Positions 9,119 through 54,843 of a stretch of DNA of 64,000 nt are shown piece by piece. A program made the position numbers and the translations under genes. The DNA is from a virus (taxonomy: Duplodnaviria > Heunggongvirae > Uroviricota > Caudoviricetes). A model generated the notes under the pieces. The model was not told the origin of the DNA and ran no database searches. It worked only from the letters and a program-made list of their open reading frames with translations. Location of the stretch: the IMG/VR virus record IMGVR_UViG_3300010409_000003. One strand, 5' to 3'. Numbering within the stretch: the first letter of the stretch is position 1; every line of letters begins with the position of its first letter.

Positions 9119-9511
9119 ATGGATAACAAGAAAGCTAAAGCTTTGATAGAAAGATTAACACCTACTAACGAGTGGGGATGCCAAGGTTTACCTTGGGGGG
9201 ATGATGAAAATTGGTTAGGTAATCATATTAATTTTAATAAAGATAAACGTATTATGCGTAAAGTTAAAAAGTTACTATCAGATAGCTATTATAAGGACGT
9301 AATAAGCTACATTAAAGATTGCGAAGGTGGTTTTAACTTTGATATTACTTTTAAATACTCAGGTGATGAGTACTCTGAGGATTGCTATGAATTTAAGAAA
9401 GCGTATGTAGACCAGTACACTAATGGTGGTTATAGTGGGGATGAATTTGCAGGTCAAGTGTGGCTACCTATAACCCCTAAACGATACTTAACTTTCCATT
9501 ATGCTATGTAG
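9119..9511 (+). CDS. hypothetical protein
   Basis: 130-aa ORF. Confidence 0.5.
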   Translation: MDNKKAKALIERLTPTNEWGCQGLPWGDDENWLGNHINFNKDKRIMRKVKKLLSDSYYKDVISYIKDCEGGFNFDITFKYSGDEYSEDCYEFKKAYVDQYTNGGYSGDEFAGQVWLPITPKRYLTFHYAM

Positions 9512-16279: not shown

Positions 16280-16300
16280 TTTAGAATAAATGCAAATTAG

Positions 16301-16370
16301 TTGTTGACTACTTAAATTAATCAATGTTAAGATAGCTTCAAGAGTTAGGAAACAAGTTGATAACAACACT
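16301..16370 (+). promoter_or_regulatory. early promoter / 5'-leader module (copy 2)
   Basis: gttgactacttaaattaatcaatgttaagatagcttcaagagttaggaaacaagttg, near-identical to 17021-17090. Confidence 0.5.
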
Positions 16371-16388: not shown

Positions 16389-17000
16389 ATGCAAATATTA
16401 AATAGATACACAAATGAAGTTATTATAGAAAGTTTAGAAGTTAAGACTATTAAAGAATTAGTAGAATTAGCTGTTAAAGAAGACGCAAACTTAAGAGACG
16501 CAAACTTAAGAGATGCAGACTTAAGAGATGCAGACTTAAGAGGTGCAAACTTAAGAGGTGCAAACTTAGTAAGAGCAAACTTAGTAAGAGCAAACTTAGT
16601 AAGAGCAAACTTAGAAGATGCAAACTTAGTAAGAGCAAACTTAGAAGATGCAAACTTACCTAATTTTTTAATAACCCCTGAAACAGGATCTTTTCAAGCG
16701 TACAAGAAATTAAGACATAATATAATAGTTAAGATTTTAATACCAGATGATGCTAAGAGAACTAATAGCTTAATAGGTCGTAAATGTAGGACTAATGAGT
16801 TCACTATTACAGAAGTTATGCAGAACCCTGCTAACATTAGTTTCAGTGAACACAAACCTTTACAATCTACACATTATGCATCAGAAGGATACTATCTAGG
16901 GGGTACTTTCAAAGAGCCTGCGTACGATGATGATATCCGTTTAGAGTGTACTAAAGGTTTGCATTTCTTTATGACATTAAAAGAAGCCCAAGATTGGTAA
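16389..17000 (+). CDS. pentapeptide-repeat protein (N-terminal A(N/D)LR(D/G/V) repeat array, about 18 repeats, plus a C-terminal globular domain)
   Basis: Reads [58 protein letters not shown], the hallmark of the Qnr/MfpA-type right-handed quadrilateral beta-helix. Confidence 0.7.
16483..16665 (+). repeat. tandem 15-bp DNA repeats (gcaaacttaagagat-like) encoding the pentapeptide array
   Basis: About 12 head-to-tail copies with minor variation. Confidence 0.7.
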
Positions 17001-17020
17001 TTAATTTAAAATAAAGTGTT

Positions 17021-17090
17021 GACTATCTAAATTAATCAATGTTAAGATAGCTTCAAGAGTTAGCAAACAAGTTGCTAGTAATAACTTAGG
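17021..17090 (+). promoter_or_regulatory. early promoter / 5'-leader module (copy 3)
   Basis: gttgactatctaaattaatcaatgttaagatagcttcaagagttagcaaacaagttgcta. The hairpin TAGCAA-acaag-TTGCTA shows a compensatory change relative to the 15271 copy. Confidence 0.5.
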
Positions 17091-17101
17091 GTTATAGGTT
17101 T

Positions 17102-17371
17102 ATGAATAAAATTAAGATAACATTACAAGAATCAGGTTGGTGTACTGACCTACGTATTAACGGACGGGATTTAGACGCAGGTTACAAAGTTAATTATAGT
17201 CTAAATGGTAAGTTAAAAAGTAATAAGGTGTATATGCATAATAGCGGTAGGAGCATAACCTTATACATAAAAATAAAAGGTAAAAGAGTAATGCTACAAA
17301 ATGAGGAAGTTATATATAATGTATCTCCCTACTCACTAGGTATCTATAAGAAGTGGTACATTGAGGTGTAG
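17102..17371 (+). CDS. hypothetical protein
   Basis: 89-aa ORF. Confidence 0.5.
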   Translation: MNKIKITLQESGWCTDLRINGRDLDAGYKVNYSLNGKLKSNKVYMHNSGRSITLYIKIKGKRVMLQNEEVIYNVSPYSLGIYKKWYIEV

Positions 17372-17387
17372 TAAGTAGTTCACAGAT

Positions 17388-17415
17388 AGCCCACTTTAAC
17401 AGTGGGCTTTTTATT
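17388..17415 (+). terminator. rho-independent terminator closing the rightward early block
   Basis: AGCCCACTttaacAGTGGGCTTTTTATT. Confidence 0.7.
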
Positions 17416-17419
17416 GCCT

Positions 17420-19233
17420 AGAATTTACCAATCAAGGTAGGCAGACAGGTACACTTAAACAGGACAAAACTAGGTAGTACACCTCAGTATAAAGACTACA
17501 GATTGCTACTGTTGTATACAAACCCTTAGTTGTTGGTATAAGGCACACTATAAGCTTGCAATACTAAGCTGTAAGAGATAGTAGGAGGCTAGTATAAGTG
17601 TTGTTATAAGGGGGTTAACTAAGTATCAACTAAGTAGCTACTGTTTCTATATGACTGTGTTGTATACTAGAGGATGCTATTTAGTGTTGTGTTCTAGTGT
17701 TATAACCTAGTATGTCAAGTATAAGTGGTAGTATAAGGAGAGACTAAACTAGTTAGTGTAATTAGTTTATACAACTTTAGTTACTACTGTTTACAGTGAC
17801 CTATTGTATATAGAATATAAGTAGTTAATATAAGATAGATAAATATAAGGTACGGTATAAGTTAGTATACTTAGTTGGTCTAACTAGGTTGCTACTGTTG
17901 TATAAGGCTTAAGATAGTTTATATAAGTTATTCTAATGATAGTTGTAAGTATTTAAGTTTTACTAATATAAGCTATTAACCTAGTAGGTGTTTAACAATT
18001 CCCAATTTCCCTTATAAACTACTATAAATTCCCCCATATAAAGCACATCCTACTCTTTACCCTCCATTTTCCCCTATTAAATACTCCCTATTTAGCCTTT
18101 TAATACTATACCCTACCCATTACCTTAGTTTTATCTAAAGTCCTCTTAGAATGGCTCCTAGTGGCTCCTACTCTATGTTGTAGCTATAAACTATACCAAT
18201 ATAAACTTGTCCTATAAGGGGGTAATATAAGTTGAGGCTAATTAGGAGGTGAACTAGGCATAAATATAAGTTTTGTACTATAAGCTTGTATAATATAAAT
18301 AAGCCAATATAAGGCTATTAAATAGGAAAGTGTACCTAGGGTATAGCTAACTAGTTTAAGTGGCTTAGAATGGCTAATATAAGCTTAGAATAGTATAAGT
18401 AGGTTAAGTATAAGAGGTATAATATAAGAGGGCTATACTGATATTTTAGAATTACTAGAGGAATATAAAGAGGGGGAGTGGAGTGGTTAAACACCTCAAT
18501 TATAAAATACCTTAAATATAACTAAAGGTAGTCTACTCTTCCCTCAATACAACAGTAGCAACCTTAGTAGTCAACTAGTTAGTATAATATAAATTACAAT
18601 TATAAATTAGTCACTTAAGTCTACCTACCATAGTAGTCCTCTATAAACTTGCATCTATAAATCTAACACTATTTACATACAACAGTAGCAACTAAGGTAG
18701 TAAACTATAGTAGTCAATCTGTCATGCTAACAGAGTATAATCAGAGACAGTCTATAAGAAGTTTATCTTAATTCTAGTATACAATTTGTTACCTATAACG
18801 TATCATTTTGTCTACCTAATTAGTGTTGTAATAGTTCGGAACGAACAGTGGCAAATTGAGGCTATAAATATAAAATATTACCTCTATAAACTTGTTCATC
18901 ATGTCTTGATATTTTAGTATATAAGCTGTATTAATAATCTTATGAAAACAGGCTGTTCATATACAAATTTAGTTGAAATGGATATTAACTGATATTTGTA
19001 CTATATGTCTATTAAGAATAGTGGGTAAGAATACACTGATATTTTAGTATATAAGAATGGCTCTATAAGGCTTTATATCTAGGTAGGCATACATTTGTAT
19101 GTATAATTGATTTAAGTTGATTAGAGAGCTTCTGAGGAGGTTTGAGGGTATATTTGAAGGTAATTTATCTATAAACAGGAAAGTATATAAATAGATATAG
19201 AAATTGGGCATTATTGAATAGAGGGTATAAGAA
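17420..19233. other. 1.8-kb ORF-free repeat-dense region (candidate replication origin, genome terminus or ncRNA locus)
   Basis: No ORF of 60 aa or more on either strand. The iteron GTTGCTACTGTTGTAT occurs at about 17503 and 17890 (plus) and 18550 and 18682 (minus). There are about 20 (A)ATATAAG(G) elements between 17547 and 18430. The stretch 18000-18130 has almost no G and 18180-18480 has almost no C. CTGATATTTTAGTATATAAG occurs three times (18441, 18907, 19036). Confidence 0.6.
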
Positions 19234-19267
19234 AAGACACTAATATTTAATGTAGTGTCTTTATATT
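19234..19267. terminator. bidirectional hairpin terminator at the end of the leftward block
   Basis: AAGACACTAatatttaatgTAGTGTCTT with T/A-rich flanks on both strands. Confidence 0.55.
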
Positions 19268-19277
19268 AAATTAATCA

Positions 19278-19869
19278 TTAAGAATACTCATGATTCTCTG
19301 GTAATGTTATTCTTGCAAACACTCTATGTATATCTCTGCCTACAGGTAATGACTCATGTATAAAATGGTTGTTGCCGTAGTAAACCTTATTAGCTTTTAG
19401 TAGATGTGGCGTATCTAATTTAATATGCCTACAATCACCACCTACTTTAGGTAAGCCCTTATATTCACCTTGCCAACCTAAACAGCTGGCGTAATTAGTA
19501 GCTAATATAATGCCACCTTTAGGATTCACATACTGCCTATTATGTTCATCAGTATTTATTGCTGCACCATTCTCACCTACCTTCCAACCATTTCCACCGC
19601 CCCCCTCCAAACGACATATTTACGGGTTCATAGTTCCCGTCTGTATGTGGGGAAGGTCTTCTTAGGGTGTTACCACTTTTAAGTGTCTTTCCATGTATAG
19701 TAAAGAATGCCGTACCTTTACCTATTACACCTTGTAACATAGTACTCACAGTTTCTACGAATTCGCTAGGTAGACCTTCTAGTGTTTCTAAGTCAAAAGG
19801 TAACATACTTAACTCCTTATTGATGAACGGTAACTCTATATCATTAGTTTCTTTAAATGTACTAATCAT
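19278..19869 (-). pseudogene. AlkB-like Fe(II)/2-oxoglutarate dioxygenase split into two frames at a G6 homopolymer (frameshift, sequencing error or recoding)
   Basis: ORFs 19573..19869 and 19278..19610 overlap at ...FGGGRW / (L)EGGGGNGW on the run GGAGGGGGGCGG (minus strand, about 19593-19604). Deleting one G gives one protein of about 197 aa with HTDG (HxD) ... HFIHESLPVGRDIHRVFARIT, which aligns to AlkB YHGIQPL...RYNLTFR. Confidence 0.5.
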
Positions 19870-19883
19870 TAATCTCCTCCCTA

Positions 19884-20234
19884 TTAAATTCCAAATTCAT
19901 TATCAATAATCTCATAACCATTTGTAAATATATTATCTAGAATACGGTACATTCCTGCTACAGTATCAAGTAAATCACCTACATAATATTTCTGTGTAGG
20001 TAATCGGCAACTATTAGGGTAGTACTTTAGTAGTTCATTATAGTCCTCCATACTATCTAAGTCTTCTATTGGGGTGCAATCAAAACATAATGCAAATATC
20101 TTATTATCTTCTAAATATTGTGGTGTGTACCTATCTAGTAGAAATTTATTAGTTTTAAATACTACTACTTTTGGTAAGTAAGATCTATTATAATCTGAGT
20201 TGTCTACTACAACCTTCTCTATAGTTGGTAGCAT
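19884..20234 (-). CDS. hypothetical protein
   Basis: 116-aa ORF. Confidence 0.45.
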   Translation of the reverse strand: MLPTIEKVVVDNSDYNRSYLPKVVVFKTNKFLLDRYTPQYLEDNKIFALCFDCTPIEDLDSMEDYNELLKYYPNSCRLPTQKYYVGDLLDTVAGMYRILDNIFTNGYEIIDNEFGI

Positions 20235-20246
20235 TATACACCCTCT

Positions 20247-20525
20247 TTAATTAATATTAATAATGAGCTTATCATCAATAGTTAGACGTACTATACAACT
20301 TTGTGATAAGCTACTAATACTTTCTTCATAGTCAAAGGTATAAGCACCAAAATAGTCTTCTAGTATTTCACACCTCACAACACTCCCTTTGAACTCACCA
20401 CGATAAAATAACTTACCTTTCTCCATACTACTAAATTGTAATATTGTATCTTGTAATTCACTATTACCATGTTCCATAAACTCTTGCCAACTTTTATGTA
20501 CTGTCATTATCCTCTCCCTTATCAA
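20247..20525 (-). CDS. hypothetical protein
   Basis: 92-aa ORF. Confidence 0.45.
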   Translation of the reverse strand: MIRERIMTVHKSWQEFMEHGNSELQDTILQFSSMEKGKLFYRGEFKGSVVRCEILEDYFGAYTFDYEESISSLSQSCIVRLTIDDKLIININ

Positions 20526-20832
20526 AATCTGGTATATAGTGTTCAGCTATAAATTTATATACTGCCAACACTCTACAGTTTTCTTCTACGTATCCATCTT
20601 TACCTTCAACACTAACTTTATGAGTTGCCTGTTCGTCTTCACCTTCTATATATTCTACATTAAGGTTGTAACGTCTAATAAATGCATCACACATATAAGG
20701 CTTAATACAAGCACCTATACGTTCTAGTATGTGATGGTATGTACTTATCTCAAAACTATTAAGCTCTCTGTGTAGAGTGTGTATATAGTGGTTAGCTTCT
20801 GCTTGGTTAACTAGTTTGTTCATTAGATACAC
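20494..20832 (-). CDS. hypothetical protein (paralog of 22522..22830)
   Basis: 112 aa. Shares the N-terminal QAEAN.Y motif and a C-terminal VY.F.A.H motif with the 22522 ORF. Confidence 0.45.
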   Translation of the reverse strand: MYLMNKLVNQAEANHYIHTLHRELNSFEISTYHHILERIGACIKPYMCDAFIRRYNLNVEYIEGEDEQATHKVSVEGKDGYVEENCRVLAVYKFIAEHYIPDFDKGEDNDST

Positions 20833-21941
20833 TCACTATTTAATTTATCTAAGTAATACTGTCTAGCTAAGTCAGAGACCTTCTTACCTACATCTTTCAT
20901 TGTTAACTTAGACTCTTCTAGGGTATCTCCCTCTTCTTTATTTATATCACGATTAACCCAACCAATATAATTACCTATGTTTTTCTGGTCTAACCCTACT
21001 TCATCAACACCTTGTTGTAACCTATTATCAGTCACAGCGTAATCTACAAAAGATTTAATACTATTTAATTTCTCAGGACATACAGCAGCTACAGATTTAA
21101 CTTTAGATACTGAGTGCTTCTTACCTTTAGTCTTAAACCAATTACCACTGTCATAGTAGTACTCTTGTGATAAAGGTGTCCACACTAAACCTTCTCCTAA
21201 GAGTTGCCCCACACCTTCTCCATCTTTTAGGTTTAGTGCTTTGGATACAGGGCAACAGTTTTCTACTTCTTCTGTCAAGCCAACTAGCTTATTTTGAGAA
21301 TACTCAGGTTTGTTAAAGTCTATATTTAATTCTTGATATGGAAAATCTGTAATAGCGTATATACCTGCTTCCTGTGTTAATTCACAAGTTAACTTAGAGC
21401 AAAGTAAAGTATTTAACCAACCTGTTTTATCATCTTGATTAGTCTCTCCTGACTTGATACCAAATATGAAGAATGCCTTATTAGGTAGATAAGAAATACC
21501 TACACCTTTCTGAATACCTTGTCCACACCATTCACCTGAAATCTTAATAGGGAATTTCACATCCCCATAGGATTCCTTAATTTCTTTGTAAGCTCTGTCT
21601 AATATAACTTTGACGTTATCTAGTTTACGAATCATAGATTGTGCAAATTCAGCATTATCTTTATGTACCATTGAGTTATCAAATTCATCTACTTCAGCTA
21701 GTAAATTATTCTTACTATGAAAGGTAATACTCATATCTTCATGTAAAATAATACTCCCATTAGTCCCATGTAACTTAGTTGTACCTATGTAAGTCACTGT
21801 AGGTGCTTTTTTAGATAAGTCAAAAATAGGTTTCTGTGTTACTTCATCATACCCTATATAACGAGAAGAATGTCGTATATTCTTAACTACGTTACGAAAT
21901 TGACCTGTACTATGAAATTTAATATTTTTATCTGTCATCAT
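20823..21941 (-). CDS. RNA ligase, Rnl2-like nucleotidyltransferase
   Basis: 372 aa. IGTTKLHGTNGS matches the Rnl2-family motif I KxHGTN (lysine adenylation site). Downstream EGLVWTP is motif-IV-like. Confidence 0.6.
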   Translation of the reverse strand: MMTDKNIKFHSTGQFRNVVKNIRHSSRYIGYDEVTQKPIFDLSKKAPTVTYIGTTKLHGTNGSIILHEDMSITFHSKNNLLAEVDEFDNSMVHKDNAEFAQSMIRKLDNVKVILDRAYKEIKESYGDVKFPIKISGEWCGQGIQKGVGISYLPNKAFFIFGIKSGETNQDDKTGWLNTLLCSKLTCELTQEAGIYAITDFPYQELNIDFNKPEYSQNKLVGLTEEVENCCPVSKALNLKDGEGVGQLLGEGLVWTPLSQEYYYDSGNWFKTKGKKHSVSKVKSVAAVCPEKLNSIKSFVDYAVTDNRLQQGVDEVGLDQKNIGNYIGWVNRDINKEEGDTLEESKLTMKDVGKKVSDLARQYYLDKLNSECI

Positions 21942-21978
21942 TTATTCTCCTTTAATTTACGTTATAACGATCTACTGA

Positions 21979-22209
21979 CTATCGACGAGAACTGCTTTCA
22001 TCTTTCTCTGTTTGAATCCCTTTATAGAACGCCTCTTTAATCGCGTAAGAGAAAAGCTTTCTCATATTATCTATTTCGGCACATATTCTTTGGTCTGGCT
22101 CATTCAATGCTTGATATTTTATTTTTACGCATAAATCTCGCATTTTATCAAATTGGTCTTTATCCATCACAGGGTTATATTTAACCTCTACCGATCTGTT
22201 GATTTCCAT
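21979..22209 (-). CDS. hypothetical protein
   Basis: 76-aa ORF. Confidence 0.4.
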   Translation of the reverse strand: MEINRSVEVKYNPVMDKDQFDKMRDLCVKIKYQALNEPDQRICAEIDNMRKLFSYAIKEAFYKGIQTEKDESSSRR

Positions 22210-22216
22210 AATTACC

Positions 22217-22522
22217 TCACTTATATTTATTGTAAACTAACTTAGTAAAACATCTGTGTCCTTCAATTCTTTCTACCTCACTAAAACCTAATGCAGTTAG
22301 CATCTTATGTCCTTCTGACCAGTACGTTGACTCTTCCTGTGAGCATAAATATAGAGCTTTCACATATATACTTAGATTACGTTCACCTAGTTGATTCAAA
22401 TCTTCATCAGGTATCTTGTAAAGTTCATAGCTACGTAGAATACGGTTAAGTTGTACGGGCAGTATAACTATCCCATATGTAAGGCATCTTTTTATTAAGC
22501 ATGGTAAGTCATTCTCTGTCAT
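22217..22522 (-). CDS. hypothetical protein
   Basis: 101-aa ORF. Confidence 0.45.
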   Translation of the reverse strand: MTENDLPCLIKRCLTYGIVILPVQLNRILRSYELYKIPDEDLNQLGERNLSIYVKALYLCSQEESTYWSEGHKMLTALGFSEVERIEGHRCFTKLVYNKYK

Positions 22523-22830
22523 TATAATTCTTCCTTACAGTGAGTAGCAACAAATTCATAAACTGTTTGCTCTAAACACTCACCAATTATAATCTCACCT
22601 ACCCTACTTACCACAATTTTCCCTGTGTTTTCACAGTGGTTTATATTTAGTTTATATTCTTCTATAAAGGTTAACACTCTAGTGAATTCTGTATTGTTTA
22701 CTAGAGTTCCATTTAGTATATCATCATAGACACCTTTATAGAAACCTTCTACCTTACAACCTACTTTCTTTTTACAATATACATAATAGTTAGCTTCTGC
22801 TTGTCTAATTGTGTTACTTACATCTGTCAT
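22522..22830 (-). CDS. hypothetical protein (paralog of 20494..20832)
   Basis: 102 aa. The conserved SD context TAAATTAAAGGAGAATAAATG is shared with 21941 and 36866. Confidence 0.45.
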   Translation of the reverse strand: MTDVSNTIRQAEANYYVYCKKKVGCKVEGFYKGVYDDILNGTLVNNTEFTRVLTFIEEYKLNINHCENTGKIVVSRVGEIIIGECLEQTVYEFVATHCKEEL

Positions 22831-22941
22831 TATTTATTCTCCTTTAATTTATTAAGTGTAGCTACTATACAGGCCTTCAAAACAGAAGTCAACACTTAAT
22901 TAGCCAAATTAAGCTAATTATTTAATATTAGCCATAATAGG

Positions 22942-23298
22942 CTAACAACAATTATCTTTATACCACTTATCAACATTAGTACTAACTATTTCGTGTGAAC
23001 ATACATTGGCTACTACATCAGCATCAACCCCTCCATAGTAGTCTTTGTAATATGATATTTCTATGTTAATTACAGTTTTGTAAACTAAACCCCCTTTATA
23101 GTCAGTGTCGTAAGACTGTATATCACTAAAAGCCTCTAGGGTTAAATAACAATTTACATCATCACTAAAGTCATAAGTAGTCTTTGGTTTATATTGTATT
23201 TCTATTTGTAAATCCTCTAAGCTCTCGTCATCTAACTTATGATGCCAGAGTATAAAACTAAACTCATAAGTATCAGTTTCGTTATTATTATTAAACAT
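22942..23298 (-). CDS. hypothetical protein
   Basis: 118-aa ORF. Confidence 0.45.
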   Translation of the reverse strand: MFNNNNETDTYEFSFILWHHKLDDESLEDLQIEIQYKPKTTYDFSDDVNCYLTLEAFSDIQSYDTDYKGGLVYKTVINIEISYYKDYYGGVDADVVANVCSHEIVSTNVDKWYKDNCC

Positions 23299-54254: not shown

Positions 54255-54638
54255 ATGAGTTTTGAACATAGACAGAAAACAACAGAGATTAATGGTAAGA
54301 CTTACACATTGATTACATTTGGTGCTAAGAAGAGTTTTGGTGTAATCCCTCAGATTATAACAATGTTAGGTGAGAACTCTAGTGACTTTGGTGAAATGGC
54401 AATGTCTGTATTAGGACATAAAGATGGTTTAAAGTTGATAGAAACATTACTATCAGATATGTCTTGTGACGGCAGAGCTATTAATTCTTTTGACGACCAT
54501 TTTGCAGAATACCGAGGTGATTTACTCCCATGTGTAGCCTTTAGCTTAGCGGAGAATGTACTGCCTTTTTTAGGAAGCGATTCACTAGCGAGCATGGCAA
54601 CGATAGTGGAAACAGCAATGCAAGGCTTAACCAAGTAG
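54255..54638 (+). CDS. tail assembly chaperone (G-like product)
   Basis: 127 aa, located just upstream of the tape-measure gene. Confidence 0.6.
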   Translation: MSFEHRQKTTEINGKTYTLITFGAKKSFGVIPQIITMLGENSSDFGEMAMSVLGHKDGLKLIETLLSDMSCDGRAINSFDDHFAEYRGDLLPCVAFSLAENVLPFLGSDSLASMATIVETAMQGLTK

Positions 54639-54835
54639 TACGAAGGATTGATAAAGAATCATCATTATCTCCTTTTACTTCAATGGCAATGAGGGTAGCA
54701 ACCTCTGGTAAGTTCAATGATAGCTATTTAGATATATGCCATGTTTGGACAGCAGAGGATTTATTCCAAGCTTTAGAAATGTTAGATATTATGTCTGAGG
54801 TTGAAAGAGCTTCTATGCCAGAATCAAACAACTAG
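54255..54835 (+). CDS. tail assembly chaperone frameshift product (GT-like) via -1 slip at T_TTT_TTA (54566..54572)
   Basis: The -1 frame is open from 54545 to a TAG at 54833. The slippery heptamer U UUU UUA sits in the zero frame at 54566-54572. The extension reads RKRFTSEHGNDSGNS...SMPESNN. Confidence 0.6.
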
Positions 54836-54843
54836 GATATATA

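Follow-up and report, generated by a model that had tools for sequence, protein, structure and literature searches.

An extra G has probably silenced an Fe(II)/2OG-oxygenase-like accessory gene in a marine phage

On the minus strand of a 64,000-nt phage sequence (IMG/VR record IMGVR_UViG_3300010409_000003; hereafter the window, to the whole of which all coordinates refer), two overlapping open reading frames (ORFs) lie one frame apart at a run of six Gs. The locus raises the question of whether these are halves of one gene, whether the break between them is real, and whether it silences the gene, is bypassed during expression or serves as a switch. We consider it most probable, at roughly 62%, that a real and recent +1G frameshift has inactivated an accessory gene for a protein resembling the Fe(II)- and 2-oxoglutarate-dependent (Fe(II)/2OG) oxygenases.

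The split gene and its repaired product

In the ORF listing the two frames, 19573-19869 (98 aa) and 19278-19610 (110 codons), overlap by 38 nt, the second being in the +1 frame relative to the first. The sole G run in the overlap is the G6 at 19600-19605, within GGAGGGGGGCGG (19596-19607). Deletion of one G from it gives a single ORF with no extra stops or indels, and the repaired protein contains both PHTDG (H75-T-D77) and FIHESLPVGRDIHRVFARIT (residues 169-188). The features of the locus are as follows.

19278-19869, minus strand: whole disrupted gene, a 196-aa phrog_8970-family protein after removal of one G, by full-length profile and homologue matches
19573-19869, minus strand: upstream ORF of 98 aa with ATG start, holding native residues 1 to about 90, including H75-x-D77
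19278-19610, minus strand: downstream +1-frame ORF of 110 codons, the native C-terminal half with GGDC, YYGNNHFIHES and HRVFARIT
19600-19605, minus strand: G6 homopolymer (C6 on the plus strand), point of frame change; the ancestral state was probably G5, GGA GGG GGC GGT GGA AAT
19639-19647, minus strand: codons of H75-T76-D77 (HxD), with the putative Fe(II) ligands; across 36 sequences H75 and D77 do not vary
19305-19367, minus strand: codons of H168 to T188 (HFIHESLPVGRDIHRVFARIT), with a putative distal His (H171), a putative 2OG-binding Arg (R182) and R186, in invariant columns
19874-19880, minus strand: Shine-Dalgarno sequence GGAGGAG, read from the sequence, 4 nt upstream of the ATG at 19867-19869
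19233-19262, minus strand: terminator-like hairpin just past the stop codon, a 10-bp stem followed by UUUUCUU (-9.9 kcal/mol, z-score -3.2)

The upstream ORF ends in an 8-residue out-of-frame tail, RWKWLEGR, followed by a TGA stop, and its M1 aligns with the start of the homologues in a 36-sequence alignment. The downstream ORF has neither an ATG nor a Shine-Dalgarno sequence of its own, the TTG start being a product of the ORF-listing rule. The Shine-Dalgarno sequence, ATG and terminator of the disrupted gene are all intact, and judged by these signals it would still be an expressed unit.

Residues 3-194 of the repaired protein match positions 3-203 of the 205 in phrog_8970 (E 2.8e-43), a family annotated as 'unknown function'. 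A search of 5.8 billion proteins returned 395 homologues; the 120 matches listed are all single proteins covering 89-100% of the query, about 177-216 aa long (mostly 193-200 aa), with a best identity of 82%. The gene is also a single ORF in 16 of 17 IMG/VR homologue loci, and a hidden Markov model search of 1.84 billion cluster representatives (50% identity clusters) found 582 family members. An earlier note on this DNA had proposed one gene split by a one-base frame change at the G run, with an HxD motif and a C-terminal block in the fused product. The ORF positions, the G6 site, the two motifs, the full-length phrog_8970 match and the single-chain homologues all bear this out; the fusion stands, at 196 aa rather than the proposed length of about 197 aa. 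The note had also called the 6-G run conspicuous, which it is not: the window has two G/C runs of at least six, against 3.5 ± 1.7 expected from first-order Markov simulations. The second of them (9195-9200) sits inside an open ORF.

Apart from the frame break the gene appears undamaged. Of the columns conserved at 90% or more among 35 homologues, all 81 are unchanged, 32 in the N-terminal half and 49 in the C-terminal half, and none of the further disabling changes that mark a pseudogene is present. If it is a pseudogene, it is a very young one; the lesion would be either young or not selected against. Because there is no other decay in the gene the mutation is probably recent, and because it lies in a short homopolymer it should be reversible in principle.

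The family's glycine loop, in which the run lies, is naturally variable in length, with 2-8 glycines in the 36-sequence alignment. The two closest relatives (P0001 and P0003; 82% and 81% identity) have F-GGGGG-NGWKV, equal in length to the one-G-deleted repair, and encode the glycines as GGT GGC GGT GGC GGT and GGT GGA GGT GGA GGC, free of any G run. Other IMG/VR relatives use mainly GGT and GGC codons in the loop, and none has a G run matching that of the window in length. The exact flank pattern with a variable G run was absent from IMG/VR and JGI metagenome contigs. The most parsimonious history would be a change from GGA GGG GGC (G5) to GGA GGG GGG C (G6) by one inserted G.

Slipped-strand mispairing in replication would be the most likely cause of the extra G. 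The insertion would fall in the tract coding for a glycine-rich, length-variable, disordered loop and would leave the HxD ligands on the N-terminal ORF but place the distal His and 2OG-binding Arg on the C-terminal one, so that no catalytically competent single chain would be encoded. The C-terminal ORF would be left unstarted and, because it has no start signals of its own, the allele would be in effect null; full-length protein would come, at most, from the few ribosomes that slip +1 on GGG-GGG-CGG.

Fold class and family of the protein

An AlphaFold model built from the 36-sequence alignment is confident (pLDDT 87, pTM 0.85) and has a double-stranded beta-helix (jelly-roll) core. Its only disordered stretch, residues 83-99, is the Gly-rich loop where the frame breaks. 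Foldseek matches to the model are weak (E at least 2e-3) and belong to one class, which includes KanJ, AlkB, P4H and NO66. The alignment has 44 invariant columns, among them H75, D77, H168, H171, R182 and R186, so that the HxD...H...R of the earlier note's protein is conserved throughout the 36 sequences and residues for an HxD/E...H facial triad are present. H171 lies in strand 170-173 of the model and R182, 11 residues further on, in strand 180-189. By analogy with the usual layout of 2OG oxygenases, these consecutive strands would carry the distal His and the 2OG-binding Arg, and the invariant R182 would be the basic residue that binds the C5-carboxylate of 2OG.

The 2OG-Fe(II) fold, for which the earlier note suggested a profile search, was not found in Pfam, but the fold class was recovered in the model. 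The repaired protein has no Pfam match up to E = 10, including to the curated 2OG-FeII_Oxy models, nothing relevant was found for 35 homologues up to E = 1, and a PDB sequence-profile search with the repaired protein gave no match. The fold and the HxD...H...R signature support an Fe(II)/2OG-oxygenase-like protein with a predicted chemistry of that class.

The label 'AlkB-like', given by the earlier note, is rejected as a family assignment. An hhalign comparison of the family alignment with E. coli AlkB chooses the same pairing that the note had drawn, NHFIHESLP over RLFYHGIQPL (H171 to H187), but at a non-significant E of 0.5 and a probability of 0.1%. AlkB is outside the best structural matches and, as stated above, neither the protein nor any of the 35 homologues has a relevant Pfam match. 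The 2OG-binding motif of AlkB is R-x-N-x-T-x-R, whereas the family has H-R-V-F-A-R-I-T, that is R182-x3-R186-x-T188; the AlkB/ALKBH DNA-RNA demethylases (PF13532) thus differ in having R-Y-N-L-T-F-R where the family has R-V-F-A-R-I-T. Identity as a phage TET/JBP-type 5-methylpyrimidine dioxygenase (5mYOX) also found no support, with no match to Pfam Tet_JBP.

The family is uncharacterised and widespread in phages, and has no Pfam model. By tblastn, intact copies labelled 'hypothetical protein' occur in several phage groups: the N4-like Vibrio phage phi50-12 (57% identity), with the gene placed between those for DNA polymerase and primase, ViI-like Serratia and Erwinia phages, phiKZ-like jumbo phages, rhizobiophages and Gordonia phages. 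Culturable phages with such an intact copy include phi50-12 (protein VOWphi5012_037), Serratia phage phiMAM1 and Pseudomonas phage 201phi2-1. A BFVD fold search returned uncharacterised viral proteins exclusively, giant-virus relatives among them, and the range of the family takes in N4-like, ViI-like, phiKZ-like and P22-like phages, marine myoviruses and even giant viruses. All-against-all ORF clustering found no conserved neighbour gene across 20 homologue loci, and for this reason the family appears to behave as a stand-alone, mobile accessory gene. It would also seem dispensable, as judged from the lack of a conserved neighbour and from other lineages independently disrupted at the loop.

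Origin and consequence of the extra G

The extra G might be an error in sequencing or assembly, the true genome having G5 and an intact gene; a one-base homopolymer difference is the classic error type, and the gene has no other defect. Look-up of the exact 98-aa product led to a Logan contig, SRR5035895_4157 (13.2 kb), carrying identical 98-aa and 110-aa ORFs. The 6.2 kb fetched from it is 100% identical to window positions 17034-23234, G6 included. On Illumina platforms, indels at 6-mers are an uncommon error and would not be expected to prevail in a consensus. The run SRR5035895 comes from the metagenome of a kelp-associated biofilm and was produced on Illumina MiSeq 2x300 (PMC7016772, Table 1), and because GC-poor sequence is under-covered in that data set (PMC7016772), coverage of this GC-poor phage may be low. 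When ±1 edits were made at 45 homopolymer runs in the window and ORF fusions scored, 19600 alone emerged as a clear broken gene; the remaining hits were a canonical -1 site of the tail-chaperone type and overlapping ORFs at the primase-helicase/HNH junction. The only other G6 run is in an open ORF, and another lineage of the family, described below, has an allele of this kind that recurs identically in three repositories. Given the identity of an independent Illumina-based assembly and the lack of any further gene break among the 45 homopolymer runs tested in the 64 kb, the homopolymer error that the earlier note had allowed for is disfavoured, and we rate an artefact as quite improbable.

A real insertion need not silence the gene if ribosomes that shift by +1, or an RNA polymerase that slips, at GGA-GGG-GGG-CGG allow full-length protein to be made from G6. 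After a one-base forward slip on G-GGG-G, tRNA-Gly would again pair perfectly; no codon is rarer in the window's long ORFs than CGG, the next one in the zero frame (2 of 10,133, or 0.2 per 1000); immediately 5' of the site is a GGAGG that resembles a Shine-Dalgarno sequence and recalls prfB; and the downstream half is perfectly preserved. These slippery, slow-codon and GGAGG features would, however, follow automatically from inserting a G into GGA GGG GGC GGT. The rare CGG arises solely because the wrong frame is read, and the GGAGG overlaps the slip site instead of lying 3 nt upstream as in prfB. There is no 3' RNA structure, the region being less structured than shuffles (z +2.4), and a run of six is short for transcriptional slippage. 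The shift site and split frame are not conserved: none of the intact homologues examined has the shift (single ORFs in 120 of 120 listed homologues and 16 of 17 IMG/VR loci), and in the closest relatives a single frame codes for this peptide throughout. An evolved site in this phage is exemplified by its canonical -1 heptamer, T_TTT_TTA (54566-54572). Programmed +1 frameshifting in a conserved form, another possibility raised by the earlier note, is thus disfavoured and recoding is very unlikely, though leaky low-level frameshifting at G6 is plausible.

Nor would function be lost if the split product worked as a two-piece enzyme, or if the N-terminal 90 or so residues had a non-catalytic role. 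The break does fall in the sole disordered, indel-tolerant loop, several lineages keep the N-terminal half alone (P0139 on 9 contigs; P0197 and P0256 similarly), and in one locus, L015, a C-terminal ORF with an ATG at M85 has arisen through a 10-bp duplication. In the window, however, the C-terminal ORF has no ATG or Shine-Dalgarno sequence and its only possible start is a TTG 36 nt upstream of the stop of the upstream ORF. Strands from both halves build the sheet of the fold in the AlphaFold model, and the large majority of the family are single chains. We consider a functional split product highly improbable.

Other lineages are broken at the same loop. In the P0156 lineage (L025-L027) a -1 shift lies in AAAGGGGGCGGGGGAAT (G5CG5); the product is on 6 contigs in ENA, JGI and Logan, of which three, one per repository, were read and proved identical over 600 nt. 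The C-terminal half is undecayed, in the other frame. No intact allele of this lineage was found in 5.8 billion proteins, the best full-length match having 65% identity.

L025:1501-2090 (ena:ERZ27250256 k141_660580, 114.7 kb), also in L026 and L027: second frameshifted lineage, shift at AAAGGGGGCGGGGGAATGAC

L015 (IMGVR_UViG_3300022693_002243, 5250-5269) has a 10-bp tandem duplication, catcttatga twice, four codons upstream of the Gly run, and its second repeat copy supplies the ATG of a 110-aa C-terminal ORF that starts at the conserved M85. In P0139 (L030-L033; 9 contigs), P0197 (L034) and P0256 (L028-L029) the N-terminal 90-100 residues are kept, as far as the Gly loop or slightly past it, and then run into unrelated sequence; these are gene remnants or possibly a reused N-terminal module. 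Among the top 150 cluster representatives, 8 of about 15 partial ones break at profile positions 84-102, a hot spot that is merely suggestive because fragment-score bias favours mid-gene breaks. The pattern would fit a dispensable, often-lost gene in which the G-rich loop tract is a mutational weak point.

The same observations can be read as signs of a contingency locus, a reversible slipped-strand switch by which populations hold both ON (G5) and OFF (G6) alleles for bet-hedging, the consensus happening to be OFF. The G6 is a coding-sequence homopolymer in which a ±1 change has occurred, and repeats of at least 6 bases that change in this way have been reported as putative contingency loci in phages T2, T4, T6, ICP1 and others (preprint PMC12633550). 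The unrelated L025-L027 lineage, with its -1 shift at the same loop and undecayed C-terminal half, and the clustering of partial representatives at that loop point the same way, and neither broken allele is otherwise decayed. Against this, a G5/G6 tract is short, and slippage would be far below that of classical phase-variable tracts; measured slippage at such short repeats is about 1e-4 to 1e-3 (PMC12633550). Most homologues avoid G runs through GGT and GGC codons, and therefore the tract is not a conserved family feature. For neither broken lineage did 5.8 billion proteins yield an ON allele, and the Logan contig, the sole other copy of the window's allele, is also G6. Of the eight representatives that break in the loop, four were examined at the DNA level and three of these are plain remnants without the C-terminal half, which indicates gene loss and not switching. 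With no ON/OFF pair, and with a tract that is short and not conserved, adaptive switching appears unlikely, even though recent inactivation and slipped-strand switching would be inseparable from the sequence alone. Similarly doubtful is the broader idea that the G-rich loop tract is a recurrent switch or fragility point at which lineages toggle the gene off, and perhaps on, by ±1 G, or keep the N-terminal half. If it were true, it would amount to a natural, family-wide phage contingency locus in an accessory enzyme.

Several points weigh against inactivation of the gene by a recent mutation. The complete absence of decay is equally expected from an error, a functional recoding site or a switching tract, and loss of function is a deduction to which a two-piece enzyme or leaky frameshifting are alternatives. 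The reads behind the window and the Logan contig are possibly the same, in which case their agreement shows independence of assembler but not of reads, and the G6 is known as an assembly consensus. No relative of more than 82% identity to the repaired protein was found in 5.8 billion proteins, and the ancestral allele is deduced from relatives at or below that level.

With these reservations, a recent null allele remains our preferred interpretation. The locus is best annotated as one frameshifted gene (2OG-Fe(II)-oxygenase-like, phrog_8970 family), and neither as two hypothetical proteins nor as AlkB. The frameshift is ordinary in kind, and its wider interest is limited to the uncharacterised family and the recurrent loop breaks. 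Because it combines the fold with an invariant HxD...H...R in a large family (582 clusters) without a Pfam model, the protein is a testable candidate enzyme. The breaks in independent lineages would offer, given read-level data, a cheap natural test of the short-homopolymer contingency-locus idea.

Genome context and comparison with known systems

The phage has 34% GC and no tRNAs, and its portal protein is at most 37% identical to the portals of Alteromonas, Vibrio and enterobacterial myoviruses. Among 50,697 phage records, megablast found none matching 18800-20300 or 20000-44000, and exact-product look-ups of the RNA ligase and a 360-aa ORF found no record of further copies of the phage, which is a novel marine myovirus. 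The disrupted gene is the last of a leftward operon of early or replication type with RNA ligase, Dda-like helicase and DNA methyltransferase genes.

Positions 17000-19278 form a 2.2-kb region without an ORF of at least 60 aa and with many short dispersed direct and inverted repeats (TATAAG-rich 17-33-mers); lying between divergent or convergent gene blocks, it may serve as an origin or have a regulatory role. Two copies of a 76-nt promoter-like repeat (87% identity) are present at 16287-16362 and 17002-17077, and the Logan contig ends at this repeat. A sub-threshold Rfam Trp_leader match at 17332-17415 (plus strand; 26 bits against a gathering threshold of 41, E 0.027) overlaps a terminator-like hairpin at 17388-17408 and is probably merely this terminator. 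The 203-aa ORF at 16389-17000 (plus strand) contains about 12 tandem 15-nt units (GCAAACTTAAGAGAT-like; repeats 16440-16690) and encodes a pentapeptide-repeat-type protein.

The -1 heptamer T_TTT_TTA (54566-54572) lies in a 127-aa ORF at 54255-54638 (plus strand), between tail genes and tape-measure-matching ORFs. A -1 shift there would give a product of about 196 aa (region 54255-54840), and the site looks like the conserved programmed frameshift of tail-assembly chaperones. The primase/helicase ORF at 1106-3034 (minus strand) matches just positions 40-610 of an 801-position profile and overlaps an HNH-endonuclease ORF in another frame (556-1332) by 227 nt (1106-1332). This does not look like a sequencing break; it could be an ordinary ORF overlap or a homing-endonuclease insertion or fusion at the 3' end of the primase-helicase gene. 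The large terminase (42692-45088, plus strand, 798 aa) has an unusual architecture: the usual terminase region spans residues 325-790, and the extra N-terminal 320 or so residues, which match other terminase families as well as primase, helicase-loader and endonuclease profiles, are perhaps a fusion or an intein-like insert.

Among known systems, the G6 site would share with the +1 site of prfB (RF2) and the -1 sites of tail chaperones a slippery P-site codon, a slow next codon and a 5' Shine-Dalgarno-like element. It differs in that it occurs in no homologue, its Shine-Dalgarno spacing is non-canonical and it has no apparent regulatory logic. Phage contingency loci, such as the A9 tract of T2 agt (preprint PMC12633550), resemble it in undergoing reversible ±1 frameshifts at homopolymers of at least 6 bases; here a ±1 change affects a 6-base homopolymer of a phage gene that is non-essential. 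The frame of another lineage of the family likewise shifts at a G run within this loop. A further example of contingency loci is provided by the polyG tracts of Campylobacter phages. The G6 site differs from these loci in that its tract is short and absent from most family members, and in the lack of an observed ON/OFF pair. Phage TET/JBP-type 5mYOX resemble the disrupted gene as Fe(II)/2OG enzymes encoded among DNA-metabolism genes (PMC13229309), but the family has no conserved ParB, methyltransferase or glycosyltransferase partner across the 20 loci.

The closest class is the 2OG-oxygenase superfamily, represented by HrmJ/BsmA-domain proteins (9dq0, 3pl0), BcmG (8xht), the L-isoleucine 4-hydroxylase IDO (6lnh) and prolyl 4-hydroxylases. 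Although structural-alignment identity is just 6-13%, and similarity to Pfam 2OG-oxygenase models or PDB chains is not significant, the family has in common with these enzymes a small single domain of about 200 aa, an invariant HxD, a distal His about 95 residues on and an Arg 11 residues later on the next strand. Its own distinguishing marks are the invariant TLRR, GGDC and YYGNNHFIHES motifs and the Gly-rich disordered loop that follows the HxD.
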